A stretch of DNA of 6,052 nt from a virus (IMGVR_UViG_2651869755_000005); one strand, 5' to 3'; counted from the first letter of the stretch, positions 1 through 6,008 are shown. Notes: generated from the sequence alone by a model not told the origin. Program-made: numbers and translations.

Positions 1-206
1 TGGCGGAGAGCATCAATGGTCTTTACAAAGCGGAGGTAATACACCGTAAGAGCTGGAAAAACCGTGCAGAAGTGGAACTGGCCACACTCACGTGGGTGGA
101 CTGGTATAACAATCGACGATTGCTGGAAAGGCTGGGCCATACTCCTCCGGCAGAAGCAGAAAAAGCTTATTATGCTTCCATCGGAAACGATGATCTGGCA
201 GCCTGA
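1..206 (+). CDS. IS3-family transposase OrfB, C-terminal part (5' end outside window)
   Basis: Open frame 3..203 with stop TGA at 204..206; conserved DDE-transposase C-terminal motif W-V-D-W-Y-N-x-R-R-L. Confidence 0.8.
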   Translation, partial: AESINGLYKAEVIHRKSWKNRAEVELATLTWVDWYNNRRLLERLGHTPPAEAEKAYYASIGNDDLAA

Positions 207-248
207 GTTCACAGATAAAATACTCTCCAGGAAACCCGGGGCGGTTCA
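1..248 (+). mobile_element. 3' end of an IS3-family insertion sequence (IS629-like), truncated by the window start; right inverted repeat ends at ...GGGGCGGTTCA (pos 248)
   Basis: Frame-3 translation of 3..203 gives a typical IS3-family orfB C-terminus (...ATLTWVDWYNNRRLLERLGHTPPAEAEKAYYASIGNDDLAA*). The sequence 207..248 is the reverse complement of the terminal repeat TGAACCGCCCCGGGTTTCCTGGAGAG... that I recall for IS629/IS1203-type elements. Exact IS identity is from memory, not a search. Confidence 0.8.
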
Positions 249-419
249 GCCGCAGATGAGCTTGTCCATATGACTGCGAGAATTAACCGTGGTGAGGCGA
301 TCCCTGAACCAGTAAAACAACTTCCTGTCATGGGCGGTAGACCTCTAAATCGTGCACAGGCTCTGGCGAAGATCGCAGAACTCAAAGCTAAGTTCGGACT
401 GAAAGGAGCAAGTGTATGA
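249..419 (+). pseudogene. P: 3' remnant of lambda-type replication gene P (about 56 codons), truncated upstream by the IS insertion
   Basis: Frame continuous from the IS boundary (249) to stop TGA 417..419, ending ...KAKFGLKGASV. The stop overlaps the ren start (ATGA at 416..419), the P-ren arrangement of lambda. No intact N-terminus or promoter-proximal start exists downstream of the IS end. Confidence 0.6.
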
Positions 420-706
420 CGGGCAAAGAGGCAATTATTCATTACCTGGGGACGCATAATAGCTTCTGTGCGCCGGACGTTGCCGCGCTAACAGGCGCAA
501 CAGTAACCAGCATAAATCAGGCCGCGGCTAAAATGGCACGGGCAGGTCTTCTGGTTATCGAAGGTAAGGTCTGGCGAACGGTGTATTACCGGTTTGCTAC
601 CAGGGAAGAACGGGAAGGAAAGATGAGCACGAACCTAATTTTTAAGGAGTGTCGCCAGAGTGCCGCGATGAAACGGGTATTGGCGGTATATGGAGTTAAA
701 AGATGA
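416..706 (+). CDS. ren: Ren-like protein (lambda ren homolog), 96 aa
   Basis: 96-aa ORF (MTGKEAIIHYLGTHNSFCAPDVAALTGATV...) matching the length and, as far as I recall, the sequence of lambda Ren; start overlaps the upstream stop (ATGA); position between P and ninB as in lambda. Confidence 0.8.
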   Translation: MTGKEAIIHYLGTHNSFCAPDVAALTGATVTSINQAAAKMARAGLLVIEGKVWRTVYYRFATREEREGKMSTNLIFKECRQSAAMKRVLAVYGVKR

Positions 707-1220: not shown

Positions 1221-1744
1221 CTATCAAATCAAATACGCCAGCACACGACAAGGACTGCTGGCAAACGCCGCTTTGGCTTTTTGATGCACTGGATATTGAG
1301 TTTGGATTCTGGCTGGATTCGGCAGCGAGCGACAAAAATGCTCTGTGCGCTCACTGGCTAACTGAGGACGACGACGCGCTCAATTCTGAGTGGGTAAGCC
1401 ACGGTGCAATCTGGAATAACCCACCGTACAGCAATATCAGGCCGTGGGTGGAAAAAGCCGCTGAGCAGTGTATACAACAGCGACAGACGGTAGTGATGCT
1501 TGTGCCAGAGGATATGTCTGTCGGATGGTTCAGCAAGGCTCTGGAGAGTGTTGACGAAGTTCGTATTATCACTGATGGACGGATTAATTTTATCGAACCA
1601 TCGACAGGGCTGGAGAAGAATGGAAACAGCAAAGGCTCCATGCTGCTGATTTGGCGACCGTTCATCAGTCCTCGACGGATGTTTACTACCGTATCCAAAG
1701 CGGCATTGATGGCGATCGGGCAGGGCGTCAGGAGGGCTGCATGA
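1217..1744 (+). CDS. Phage-type DNA N6-adenine methyltransferase (small Dam-like), 175 aa
   Basis: Catalytic motif IV N-P-P-Y within ...[11 protein letters not shown]...; size and context typical of lambdoid nin-region Dam-like methylases. ATG 1217 overlaps the ninB stop (ATGA) with a GGGGAGA SD about 9 nt upstream; upstream Met codons in the track ORF (from 1157) would overlap ninB and are rejected. Confidence 0.8.
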
Positions 1745-1917
1745 GACGACAGCGACGAAGCATCACCGACATAATCTGCGAAAACTGCAAATACCTTCCA
1801 ACGAAATGCTCCAGAAATAAACGCAAGCTAATCCCAAAAGAATCTGACGTAAAAACCTTCAATTACACAGCCCACCTGTGGGATATCCGGTGGCTAAGAT
1901 ATCGTGCGAGGAAATGA
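1741..1917 (+). CDS. ninE: NinE, 58 aa
   Basis: [29 protein letters not shown]...[19 protein letters not shown] matches lambda/DLP12 NinE as I recall it; ATG 1741 overlaps the methyltransferase stop (ATGA). Confidence 0.85.
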
Positions 1918-1919
1918 CA

Positions 1920-2261
1920 ATGGATTATTCACAGTTAAGTGATTTTGAAATTAACAGAATGGTAGGAGACATAATTTTTAAAGGCCTTTGGGCAAGTAAA
2001 CCGGAAACATCAGGGAATAACACCAACAAATGGTATTACGGAAATGCTGATACAACTTTTGAGCCATTAAATCATTTGCCTGACTACTGCAATGATCCGA
2101 GCGCTTCATGGCCGATTATTGAGAAATACAGGATTTCTATCTTAGACCAGTTAACTGAATGGTGTGTGGATGCAAAAGGCGTAAGCCCAATATTTGATAC
2201 CAGACCTCTCCGCGCCGCCATGATTGTCTTTCTCCTGATGCAGGAGGCCAATAATGCTTAG
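1920..2261 (+). CDS. Hypothetical nin-region protein, 113 aa, function unknown
   Basis: Long ORF in the same orientation; ATG 1920 preceded by GAGGAA SD at 1908..1913, 2 nt after the ninE stop. No motif I recognise ([24 protein letters not shown]...[13 protein letters not shown]...). An in-frame alternative start exists at 1914. Confidence 0.7.
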
Positions 2262-2448
2262 CCCATCTCAATCCCTTCAATACCTGAAAGAAAGCATAGA
2301 GCGGGCTTCAATGTGCACAGAGTGGATTCTATCTAGGTTTAGCGCATACAGAAGATTGCCGGTAAAGGGCATGCCAAGCAAGTCGATGCTGCATATGCAA
2401 AAGAATGCGCGCTGGAAGGTATGGCGAGAACACAGGTTATGTGGCTAA
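2254..2448 (+). CDS. Hypothetical small protein, 64 aa; N-terminus possibly NinF-like; 3' part overlaps an out-of-frame ybcO-like remnant
   Basis: ATG 2254 preceded by a strong SD (CAGGAGG, 2241..2247) and overlapping the upstream stop by 8 nt. The basic C-terminal third lies over sequence that in another frame encodes a YbcO-like C-terminus, so the 3' end may be fortuitous. The NinF resemblance of [10 protein letters not shown]... is a weak recollection. Confidence 0.5.
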
Positions 2449-2471
2449 AAGAGGGGGTTATTAAGGCGTGA
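2343..2471 (+). pseudogene. ybcO: 3' remnant of a ybcO-like (DUF1364 nuclease-like) gene lacking its 5' two-thirds
   Basis: Frame beginning after stop 2340..2342 reads ...[29 protein letters not shown], matching the C-terminus of DLP12 YbcO as I recall it. Its stop (2469..2471) overlaps the rusA GTG start, as in DLP12. No N-terminal Cys-rich YbcO portion is present upstream. Confidence 0.45.
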
Positions 2472-2830
2472 ATACCTACAGCATCACATTACCCTGGCCT
2501 CCGAGCAATAATCGCTATTACCGCCATAATCGCGGGCGCACGCACGTCAGCGCAGAGGGGCAGGCATACCGCGATAACGTCGCCCGAATCATTAAAAACG
2601 CAATGCTGGATATCGGCCTGGCTATGCCTGTGAAAATCCGCATTGAGTGCCACATGCCGGATCGCCGTCGCCGTGACCTGGATAATCTGCAAAAAGCCGC
2701 TTTTGACGCACTCACTAAAGCAGGTTTCTGGCTGGATGATGCTCAGGTCGTTGATTACCGCGTTGTGAAGATGCCTGTTACCAAAGGTGGGAGGCTGGAA
2801 CTGACCATCACCGAAATGGGGAATGAATGA
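2468..2830 (+). CDS. rusA: RusA Holliday-junction resolvase, 120 aa
   Basis: [120 protein letters not shown] matches E. coli DLP12 RusA as I recall it; GTG start at 2468 with GAGGGGG SD upstream. Confidence 0.92.
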
Positions 2831-3052: not shown

Positions 3053-3436
3053 ATGCGTGATATTCAGATGGTTCTTGAGCGTTGGGGTGCGTGGGCGGCT
3101 AATAATCATGAAGATGTGACCTGGTCGTCCATTGCCGCCGGTTTTAAGGGATTAATTCCTTCAAAAGTAAAATCTCGCCCGCAATGTTGTGACGATGACG
3201 CGATGATCATTTGCGGGTGCATGGCCCGTCTGAAAAAGAACAACAGCGATTTACACGATTTATTAGTAGATTATTATGTATGTGGTATGACATTCATGTC
3301 ACTGGCAAGTAAGCATTGCTGCTCGGATGGTTATATCGGGAAAAGGTTACAGAAGGCTGAGGGCATAATTGAAGGGATGTTAATGGCATTAGATATCCGG
3401 TTAGATATGGATATCGTTGCTAATAATTCTAATTGA
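3053..3436 (+). CDS. quuD: Q-family late-gene antiterminator (QuuD-like), 127 aa
   Basis: [31 protein letters not shown]...[16 protein letters not shown]... matches DLP12 QuuD in length and sequence as I recall it; ATG 3053 with GGAG SD at 3042..3045. Track start 3038 (TTG) rejected. Confidence 0.88.
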
Positions 3437-3624: not shown

Positions 3625-4707
3625 TTAGAACTGATAAACCAGACCTACAGCGACGATGTCGTCGGTATCAATACCAGCTGTTTTGGTAAACTTACTATCG
3701 TCAATTAAGTTGATTTTGTAATCAACAAAAGTAGACATGTTTTTATTAAAGTAGTAAGTAGCACCGACATCGACATACTTGACTAAGTCTCGGTCACCAT
3801 GAACACCAAGGTCTTTACCTTTTGACTGAAGGTAAGCAACAGATGGGCGCAGACCGAAGTCAAACTGATATTGTGCTACTGCTTCAAAGTTTTGTGCTTT
3901 GTTTGCAATATGGTTATTACCAAAAACGGTCATATTCTGAGTTTCAGAATATGTGGTAGCCAGATAGATATTGTTCGCATCATATTTCAGGCCTGCAGCC
4001 CATACTTCCGCATTTTTGCCGGAGGCATTGAATTTGCTCTTACCATAGGCGACCTGACCGTCAGTGCGATCTGATTTAGCATAGGTTGCACCCACGCCGA
4101 ATCCTTCATACTCATAAGTAGTGGAGAAACCGAAACCATCACCATTGGCTTCAGTTACGTCAGTGCGGTCATTTTTACCCTGATACTGAGCAGCAAAGTT
4201 CAGGCCATCGACCAGACCAAAGAAGTCGTTGTTACGATAAGTTGCAACACCAGTAGTGCGACCAGTCATGAACACATCTGTTTGGGTCCAGGTATCACCA
4301 CCGAATTCTGGCAGAACGTCAGTCCACGCACCGATGTCGTATGCTACACCGTAGTTACGGCCGTAATCGATGGAGCCGTAATCACCAAATTTCAGGCCTG
4401 CAAATGCAAGACGGGTTTTGTCTTTGGAAGAACCTTGAGATTCAGCACGGTTGCCTTTGAATTCATATTCCCACTGACCGAAACCAGTCAGTTGATCGTT
4501 GATTTGGGTTTCACCTTTGAAGCCAAGACGGGCATAAGTAGTATCACCATCATCTGCATCATTAGAGGAGAAGTAGTGCTTGGCATTAACTTTCCCGTAT
4601 AGATCCAGCTTGTTACTGTCTTTATTATAAATTTCAGCTGCCTGAGCAGACATCGCCATCAGTACTGATGCAGCTACAGCAGAAATTGCCACTGTTAATT
4701 TTTTCAT
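3625..4707 (-). CDS. nmpC: Outer-membrane general porin of the OmpC/OmpF/PhoE family (NmpC-like), apparently intact, with signal peptide
   Basis: Signal peptide [23 protein letters not shown] then [16 protein letters not shown]...; C-terminal ...VGLVYQF with terminal Phe typical of beta-barrel OMPs. Start ATG (complement of 4705..4707) chosen over the track's upstream Met (4767) because of the signal peptide and an AAGGG SD. Position and orientation between quuD and essD match DLP12 nmpC. Confidence 0.9.
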
Positions 4708-4990
4708 TGTACGCCCTTTTTTTGAACTATTATTAAAAAATGATGTCACTGCGCGATAAATATTCATCTAATCAATGTGATTATTTCAAGATGTAAGTTT
4801 TAGTTTCTCATTTAATTTGTGAAGTAGATCTCTATTTTTATCTGAACCTTTTCTATCTAATCCTATTCATGGCTCTTGTCTGAACAAAAATAAATCTATT
4901 AGCTAATTTATATTAATGGCACTTATTTATAAGTGCTCTATAATTCTTTAGCTTAATTTAAACAAACTAAAAATAACATCGGAAATTATT
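4708..4990 (-). promoter_or_regulatory. AT-rich upstream/5' leader region of the porin gene (promoter not mapped)
   Basis: Long AT-rich non-coding stretch upstream of the porin start, containing an 18-bp inverted repeat (4919..4936) and several TCTAT/ATCTA repeats; porin genes usually carry long regulated leaders. No -35/-10 pair is assigned with confidence. Confidence 0.4.
4919..4936. repeat. Perfect inverted repeat GCACTTAT-TT-ATAAGTGC (8-bp arms, 2-bp spacer)
   Basis: Read directly from the sequence; arms are exact reverse complements. Candidate dimeric regulator operator, about 215 bp upstream of the porin start codon. Confidence 0.5.
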
Positions 4991-5295: not shown

Positions 5296-5511
5296 ATGAA
5301 ATCCATGGATAAGTTAACAACGGGTGTCGCCTATGGCACCTCAGCAGGTAGTGCCGGTTACTGGTTTTTACAGCTGCTCGATAAAGTCACGCCCTCACAG
5401 TGGGCAGCAATAGGTGTGCTGGGTAGCCTGGTATTTGGCCTGCTGACGTACCTGACAAACCTTTATTTCAAGATTAAAGAAGATAAGCGCAAGGCTGCGA
5501 GAGGTGAATAA
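5296..5511 (+). CDS. essD: Holin, phage 21 S-like pinholin (EssD-like), 71 aa, with dual-start motif
   Basis: [71 protein letters not shown] resembles DLP12 EssD / S21 as I recall them; Met1-Lys2-Ser3-Met4 gives the two-start holin/antiholin arrangement; GAGGTGGGG SD upstream; two hydrophobic segments. Confidence 0.9.
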
Positions 5512-6008
5512 TGCCTCCATCATTACGAAAAGCCGTTGCTGCTGCTATTGGTGGCGGAGCAATTGCTATAGCATCAGTGTTAATCACTGGCCCAAGTGGT
5601 AACGATGGTCTGGAAGGTGTCAGCTACATACCATACAAAGATATTGTTGGTGTATGGACTGTATGTCACGGGCATACAGGAAAAGACATCATGCTCGGTA
5701 AAACGTATACCAAAGCAGAATGCAAAGCCCTCCTGAATAAAGACCTTGCCACGGTCGCCAGACAAATTAACCCGTACATCAAAGTCGATATACCGGAAAC
5801 AATGCGCGGCGCTCTTTACTCATTCGTTTACAACGTGGGTGCTGGCAATTTCAGAACATCGACGCTTCTTCGCAAAATAAACCAGGGCGATATCAAAGGC
5901 GCATGTGATCAGCTACGTCGCTGGACATATGCTGGCGGTAAGCAATGGAAAGGTCTCATGACTCGTCGTGAGATTGAGCGTGAAATCTGTTTGTGGGGTC
6001 AGCAATGA
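5511..6008 (+). CDS. rrrD: Phage lysozyme with N-terminal signal-anchor-release (SAR) domain (RrrD/R21-like), 165 aa
   Basis: N-terminal Gly/Ala-rich weakly hydrophobic segment [20 protein letters not shown] followed by a lysozyme domain (...[16 protein letters not shown]...); start overlaps the essD stop (TAATG); pairing with a pinholin is the phage 21 arrangement. Confidence 0.9.

Follow-up and report, generated by a model that had tools for sequence, protein, structure and literature searches.

A conserved ninX gene and a probable ninF-ybcO recombination scar between ninE and rusA of an Escherichia coli lambdoid prophage

Introduction

[quoted passage not shown] In lambda ninE is followed directly by ninF and there is no ninX, whereas P22 has both, in the order ninE-ninX-ninF-ninG, and in the P22 record ninX (1223..1561) and ninF (1554..1730) overlap by 8 nt. 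NinF of P22 and lambda is described by Pfam PF05810, a model that spans the Cys-rich residues 20-44 of the protein. In phage 82 and its like the gene that overlaps rusA is ybcO (orf96 of phage 82; PF07102, DUF1364; PDB 3g27). For NinX the literature found under the terms NinX, DUF2591, PF10765, and 1r7l consists of mentions in genome annotations, with no functional work among it.

Here we examine a window, 6,052 nt of viral DNA (IMGVR_UViG_2651869755_000005) that represents the early-right (nin) part of a lambdoid prophage of E. coli, and within it the block of two overlapping ORFs that separates ninE from rusA. A preliminary description of this DNA had taken the two ORFs for a translationally coupled pair of unassignable function, plausibly anti-defence, superinfection-exclusion or toxin/antitoxin-like cargo. 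Our analysis indicates that the block very probably consists of one real gene, ninX, and a ninF'/'ybcO recombination scar that happens to be open in one frame; where lambda has ninF alone and P22 has both genes, this locus carries ninX and a ninF stub. The arrangement is ordinary mosaicism of lambdoid prophages, a phenomenon already known.

Results and Discussion

Layout of the block between ninE and rusA

The two ORFs of 113 and 64 aa, their 8-nt overlap and their good ribosome-binding sites were confirmed from the ORF list, the sequence, and the Shine-Dalgarno (SD) sites, and the Pfam matches of both flanking genes place the block in the exchangeable nin slot, as had been proposed. The neighbors named at the outset, a ninF of the lambda type and a ybcO of the DLP12/phage 82 type, also proved to be the relevant ones. 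The features of the block are as follows.

1741..1917, plus strand: ninE, 58 aa, left flank of the slot (Pfam PF05322 NinE, E 2.9e-40, full length; PGAP "NinE family protein")
1920..2261, plus strand: ninX, 113 aa (PF10765, phrog_444, RefSeq)
2242..2261, plus strand: ninX-ninF junction, apparently inherited (SD AGGAGG 2242-2247, ninF ATG 2254, ninX TAG 2259-2261)
2254..2448, plus strand: ORF64, a chimeric ORF of 64 aa, pI 10.4 (ORF list, sequence)
2254..2316, plus strand: ninF', the first 21 codons of a P22-type ninF (codon-by-codon comparison with P22, blastn end point, four-way comparison)
2317..2381, no strand assigned: filler of 65 nt (found only in scar copies and Stx1-type phages)
2382..2471, plus strand: 'ybcO, the last 29 codons and stop of ybcO/DUF1364, residues 68-96 of 96 (PGAP pseudogene)
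2468..2830, plus strand: rusA, 120 aa, right flank, GTG start (Pfam RusA, E 6.9e-23; PGAP rusA)

The ninE gene shares 96% nucleotide identity with that of P22, and on the other side rusA has its own SD (AGGGGG, 2452-2457), at a position homologous to the one marked as the RBS in the phage 82 record X92588. A megablast search with positions 1700-2900 recovered the arrangement in full from 560 of 5,426 complete E. coli genomes; identity over this span is 100% in some of them and 99.8% in Nissle 1917, ATCC 11775, and NU14. RefSeq gives the gene order as NinB, phage N-6-adenine methyltransferase, NinE, NinX, DUF1364 pseudogene remnant, rusA, ylcG, quuD, porin, and essD. No RNA family was found in the window with Rfam, and a promoter and terminator scan of 1700-2900 returned background level only.

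Assignment of the 113-aa ORF to NinX

The mechanical ORF call for the first frame begins at GTG 1878, and the 113-aa ORF begins at ATG 1920, 7 nt after an SD (GAGGA, 1908-1912). An alternative ATG at 1914 shares bases with the ninE stop (TGA 1915-1917, forming ATGA). Since its SD spacing is just 1 nt, and since most NinX homologues begin with MDYS, as does the protein read from 1920, we consider ATG 1920 the better start; PGAP places the start there as well.

The protein that had been set down as unassignable scores 62.1 bits on Pfam PF10765 (Phage_P22_NinX, formerly DUF2591), for which the cut-off is 22.6; the match spans its residues 2-108 and model positions 1-114, and the same model is matched by 36 of 36 aligned NinX homologues. 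It further matches phrog_444 (E 7.6e-44), and in the 100%-identical genomes it is RefSeq WP_000386643.1, "phage protein NinX family protein"; NCBIfam gave no model. The large protein search returned 930 relatives from Escherichia, Salmonella, Citrobacter, Enterobacter, Klebsiella, and other genera, nearly all of them with PF10765, and the exact 113-aa sequence occurs on at least 1,000 contigs. With 930 homologues and a Pfam match, this ORF stands clearly above chance. The conserved NinX blocks (MDYSxLSDxEIN, DYCNNPxDAWPII, and a third block) are all present, and the alignment has as invariant positions Y3, I11, C57, R98, A100, M101, and I102. Its position is likewise that of P22 ninX, immediately behind ninE and sharing the identical 8 nt with the start of ninF, with 94-96% nucleotide identity to P22 on both flanks. 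By these sequence comparisons the ORF is assigned to NinX as a real and conserved gene of the nin region, already annotated in hundreds of genomes. The profile search proposed in the preliminary description thus yielded an assignment for the 113-aa protein, and gave no match for ORF64 in either Pfam or NCBIfam.

Mosaic structure and predicted fold of NinX

Comparison with P22 at the DNA level gave 96% identity over 1746-1956 (ninE and the 5' end of ninX) and 94% over 2107-2316 (the 3' end of ninX and the 5' end of ninF), with no similarity over 1957-2106, the middle of ninX. The proteins follow the same pattern: 12 of 13 residues are identical over residues 1-13, only 4 of 41 over 14-54, and 43 of 46 over 68-113. 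Another homologue (P0032) shows a different distribution, with 67 of 67 residues identical over 1-67 and 26 of 46 over 68-113. These block-wise identities to P22 and P0032 indicate that ninX is an intragenic mosaic of two blocks, with the joint at the conserved DYCNNPxDAWPII motif. Compared with P22 NinX, then, the protein of the window belongs to the same family over the full length of the model and is near-identical to it at both termini, whereas its residues 14-54 are unrelated, as expected of a different allele of a block-mosaic gene.

Of the two structure predictions, the one for NinX was confident and the one for ORF64 was so only in part (pLDDT 84.5, pTM just 0.47). The AlphaFold2 (AF2) model of NinX, built from a 36-sequence alignment, reached a pLDDT of 85.7 and a pTM of 0.79, with low confidence in the variable segment 20-55, and has the fold of an alpha/beta/alpha sandwich like that of PDB 1r7l, on which, as a phage ABA sandwich, the model superposes over the whole domain. 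We take 1r7l to be the structure that defines the Pfam "phage ABA sandwich" domain PF18066; with that profile only 1 of the 36 NinX homologues makes contact, at E 0.23, and the window protein does not. Sequence and profile searches of NinX against the PDB returned noise only (E >= 0.04). The likeness is one of fold, the sequence identity of NinX to 1r7l, a Bacillus cereus prophage protein, and to 4pup, a Burkholderia cenocepacia protein, being 12-15%, and as both of these are without known function it gives no mechanism. All significant neighbors of the NinX model in BFVD are uncharacterised or unnamed phage proteins.

NinX is acidic (pI 4.5). Its conserved residues are mostly core hydrophobics together with D2, S4, S7, D8, E10, N12, D55, C57, N58, and R98, and no catalytic or metal-binding signature was found among them, in agreement with the earlier observation that the protein has no catalytic motif and no known function. 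From the predicted fold, the charge, and the variability we suggest, with low confidence, that NinX may be a binding protein without enzymatic activity, its specificity set by the variable blocks. It would bind another macromolecule during early lytic growth, with the exchangeable and highly variable blocks forming the specificity surface. NinX remains a widespread accessory protein of lambdoid phages with a confidently predicted fold and no function assigned.

Anatomy of the 64-aa ORF

ORF64 runs from the ATG at 2254 to the stop at 2448 and overlaps ninX by 8 nt (ATGCTTAG, 2254-2261), with an SD (AGGAGG, 2242-2247) placed 6 nt before the start codon. It consists of three pieces, the blastn breakpoints of which are P22 to 2316, the filler of Stx1 phages 2288-2388, and ybcO-rusA from 2382 onward.

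The first piece, ninF', matches P22 ninF codon for codon over codons 1-21 (94% nucleotide identity), and the homology fades between about 2306 and 2318 with the blastn end at 2316; at the protein level phrog_672 is matched by residues 1-22 only (E 3.6e-4). This piece supplies the SD, the start codon, and the 8-nt ninX overlap, so what had been read as the coupling of a functional pair appears to be the P22 ninX-ninF junction, inherited as such. Here the likeness to NinF ends, for ORF64 lacks the NinF domain. Of the NinF motif C-x2-C ... C-x2-CC only Cys21 is kept, and ORF64 gave no match to the Pfam NinF model at E<=10, under conditions in which the P22 NinF control scored 50.4 bits against a threshold of 27.5. 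The idea that ORF64 is a divergent NinF was rejected on these grounds, the Pfam model covering exactly the part that is deleted.

Among 5426 complete E. coli genomes, about 590 have the 65-nt filler at >=95% identity, always within the scar; the only other place where it turned up, at 88% identity, is a stretch without annotation that follows ninE in Stx1-type phages (about 250 genomes). Searches of phage and E. coli DNA and the protein search with ORF64 brought up no parent for it. In these phages the ninF breakpoint, the filler, and then an AT-rich stretch (1444-1956 in SH2026Stx1) are followed by a large minus-strand hypothetical gene (from 1956) resembling moron cargo; the filler may mark an old boundary of cargo insertion.

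From 2382 the DNA follows ybcO(orf96)-rusA at 98.7% identity to PhiR68_2 and 95.2% to phage 82, and the ybcO part itself (2382-2471) is 92-98% identical to the 3' ends of intact ybcO genes. The reading frame of 'ybcO is the -1 frame relative to ORF64; translated there, the DNA gives YbcO residues 68-96, and its TGA overlaps the rusA GTG as GTGA, just as it does in intact phages. PGAP annotates a "DUF1364 domain-containing protein, missing N-terminus" pseudogene at exactly 2382..2471. Unlike YbcO, the remnant has no start codon, and none of the N-terminal cysteines (Cys13/21/39/54/57) and histidines (His32/58/66) remains, all of them belonging to the deleted part; the comparison with the solved structure 3g27 was made by sequence. 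In its own frame it scored 17.7 bits on the Pfam YbcO model (positions 62-92), below the threshold of 29.9, where the intact PhiR68_2 YbcO used as a control scored 138.7 bits; ORF64 gave no score with this model. An internal restart of the ybcO remnant was considered and rejected, as ATGs occur in its frame only at 2421 and 2439, from which the products would have 16 and 10 aa, and no AGGAGG-type SD is seen upstream of either.

The same region has been joined in other ways elsewhere. In E. coli the chimeras P0011-P0015 carry unrelated N-termini, one of them an HTH regulator (PF01381), in front of an ORF64-type tail, and in another E. coli genome the segment corresponding to 2363-2392 of the window adjoins an ead/Ea22-like gene. 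Recombination has therefore joined sequences repeatedly at position ~2363, and the filler may be composite.

Taken together, the three pieces and their frames indicate that ORF64 is an accidental frame over a recombination scar linking the ninF start with an out-of-frame ybcO tail. The identity of all pieces, their breakpoints, and their frame relations were observed directly, and from them we infer an order of past events. An old illegitimate recombination or deletion would have removed the body of ninF, whatever came next, and the first 67 codons of ybcO, leaving behind ninF codons 1-21, the 65-nt filler, and the last 29 ybcO codons fused to an intact rusA. The adjacent ninX is an accessory gene of the early-right (nin) operon of lambdoid phages, conserved and non-essential. 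Ribosomes would start at the inherited ninF ATG, read on through the filler and, out of frame, through the remnant of ybcO, and stop at the TAA at 2446-2448, and the product would be a by-product that belongs to no protein family.

Coding tests and distribution of the 64-aa ORF

In the comparison with phage 82 over 2382-2467, substitutions number 5 synonymous to 2 non-synonymous when read in the ybcO frame and 0 to 5 when read in the ORF64 frame, and comparisons with mEp237 and 4A7 gave a similar pattern. The scar copies themselves (2E9, mEp332, Chlobot, ev207) differ by 8 distinct substitutions, 6 of which alter the ORF64 residue; this test has low power, since these copies diverge by at most 3%. 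Beyond ninF' the frame remains open for 43 codons, which is expected by chance with p = 0.06 (segment shuffles) to 0.13 ((61/64)^43), and one frame of the reverse strand is likewise open over these 129 nt. The length of ORF64 is not above chance.

A search among 5.8 billion (5.8e9) proteins found only 20 relatives of ORF64, every one in E. coli. Some are ybcO genes that a frameshift carries into the tail of ORF64, others are scar copies with varied tails, and others have unrelated N-termini joined at "KGMPSK". The 64-aa ORF, which had been presented as a gene, is thus better seen as a probable frame artefact of a degraded ninF/ybcO region, unconserved outside near-identical E. coli prophages. 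A further scar copy is found in Stx1 phages, where the ninE-ninF junction is of the lambda type, the start has changed from GTG to GTA, and an in-frame CAA has become TAA, with the ninF breakpoint being shared; this shared breakpoint next to a dead start indicates that the scar is of old date and that elsewhere it is plainly non-coding.

ORF64 is intact in the common E. coli variants and in the five phage copies that were translated, which come from records of 97-100% identity and include isolated phages; its exact sequence occurs on at least 1,000 contigs, and about 11% of complete E. coli genomes have the scar. As ninF' keeps the SD, the ATG, and the ninX overlap, ribosomes can start there, and because this initiation region is that of a real gene, ORF64 is probably translated. 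The AF2 single-sequence model shows a helical hairpin, so a folded, small, basic peptide may result; the model does not discriminate between the readings weighed below.

Alternative readings of the block

The alternative that survives best, which we regard as unlikely, grants that the ORF64 peptide is meaningless and holds that translation across the 200-nt scar keeps rusA coupled and shields the transcript from Rho-dependent polarity. It draws on the position of the ORF64 stop, 3 nt 5' of the rusA SD and 19 nt 5' of GTG 2468, on the GTGA overlap by which ybcO meets rusA in intact phages, and on the preservation of the frame in all five translated phage copies; in addition, PMC8022706 describes the nin genes as chained by start/stop overlaps and the nin region as containing Rho-dependent terminators. 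However, the openness of the frame is within chance, rusA has an SD of its own, and public variants occur with other tails (stop read-through, frameshifts, other junctions, and partial records; P0001, P0002, P0005-P0010). Rho is, moreover, already suppressed in this operon, as N-mediated antitermination does so in the lambda early-right operon.

Improbable, in our estimation, is a wider reading in which either NinX diversifies as an inhibitor of some host factor, an anti-defence protein with a 1r7l-like fold being one example, or ORF64 is a translated proto-gene or a bridge that couples rusA. The conserved core of NinX, its block-swapped hypervariable surface segments, and its acidic charge are what suggest that it could be such an inhibitor; for ORF64 it is the strong inherited start and the frequency of the scar in E. 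coli genomes. If the latter held, this phage mosaic joint would be a modest case from nature of a new gene arising or of coupling being repaired.

Far less credible is the view closest to the preliminary description, that ORF64 is a functional new peptide, a basic helical hairpin acting alone or with NinX as accessory cargo of the anti-defence, exclusion or toxin/antitoxin kind. The good SD and start codon, the probable translation, the abundance of the exact sequence and of the scar in E. coli genomes, and the two helices of the model would all suit such a peptide, as would the opposite charges of the two products. Against this, two thirds of ORF64 is filler and out-of-frame ybcO, the substitutions set out above (none synonymous against intact ybcO, and mostly non-synonymous among scar copies) do not look like those of a coding frame, homologues were not found outside E. 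coli, the Stx1 copy is non-coding, PGAP makes no call, and the pTM is low. Neither ORF has a PADLOC-DB match at E<=1 or a Pfam toxin/antitoxin domain. The two also fail to behave as an obligate pair: lambda carries ninF alone, ninX stands here with no NinF domain next to it, and the tail of ORF64 occurs behind unrelated N-termini. With PADLOC empty and the two genes occurring independently, defence or toxin/antitoxin cargo was rejected.

Least of all do we credit a programmed -1 frameshift at A_AAG_GGC (2364-2370), an X_XXY_YYZ heptamer lying 3' of the last stop in the ybcO frame (2340-2342), which would carry ribosomes from ORF64 into that frame and give a NinF'-YbcO' fusion ending at GTGA: chance alone would supply about 0.25 heptamers of this pattern in 64 codons, the 80 nt downstream have no more folding stability than shuffled versions of them (z 0.34), the Stx1 copy has AAAGGAC in its place, and the fusion would have neither functional domain, so this candidate was rejected as being at chance level, with no stimulatory structure and not conserved. 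A_AAG_GGC is not known to be among the efficient slippery sequences of E. coli.

Annotation in public databases

The reading of ORF64 as a chance frame over a scar bears directly on its annotation. Both sequences of the block are already public, on at least 1,000 contigs each, as NinX family protein and as "protein ninF". The latter name, evidently owed to the shared ninF start, is attached to ORF64 in the phage RefSeq record ev207, in NCBI clusters, and in many GenBank and UniRef entries, through which it has been propagated. It is a misnomer and misleading, since ORF64 has no NinF domain and consists mostly of filler and ybcO out of frame. The current PGAP makes no ORF64 call and annotates the 'ybcO remnant alone at that place, which is the better description. 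In two genomes a locus tag is skipped exactly at ORF64, between NinX and DUF1364 (RS16305 in NZ_CP091756 and RS24155 in NZ_CP022686), which suggests that an earlier "ninF" call was withdrawn. The locus matters little for discovery, and provides a clean worked example of lambdoid mosaic joints both at gene boundaries and inside genes.

Remainder of the window

At the left of the window (1-420) stands the right end of an insertion sequence of the IS3 family, with a transposase C-terminal ORF at 72..206. Directly next to it is a lambda-type replication gene P truncated to its last 49 codons (270..419), and ren follows at 416..706. Given this truncated P beside the IS3-family end, the replication module of the prophage appears to be disrupted. 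In the collection of complete E. coli genomes searched, none matched the IS3/P junction in one piece. Downstream of rusA, a phage-borne, OmpC/NmpC-like porin gene lies on the minus strand at 3625-4767 (a 380-aa ORF annotated "porin OmpC"). This porin moron is placed between quuD (PGAP annotation corresponding to 3053..3436 of the window) and the lysis genes, as in prophages of the DLP12/PA-2 type, and the lysis genes themselves comprise essD at 5296..5511 and a lysozyme-like ORF at 5511..6008.
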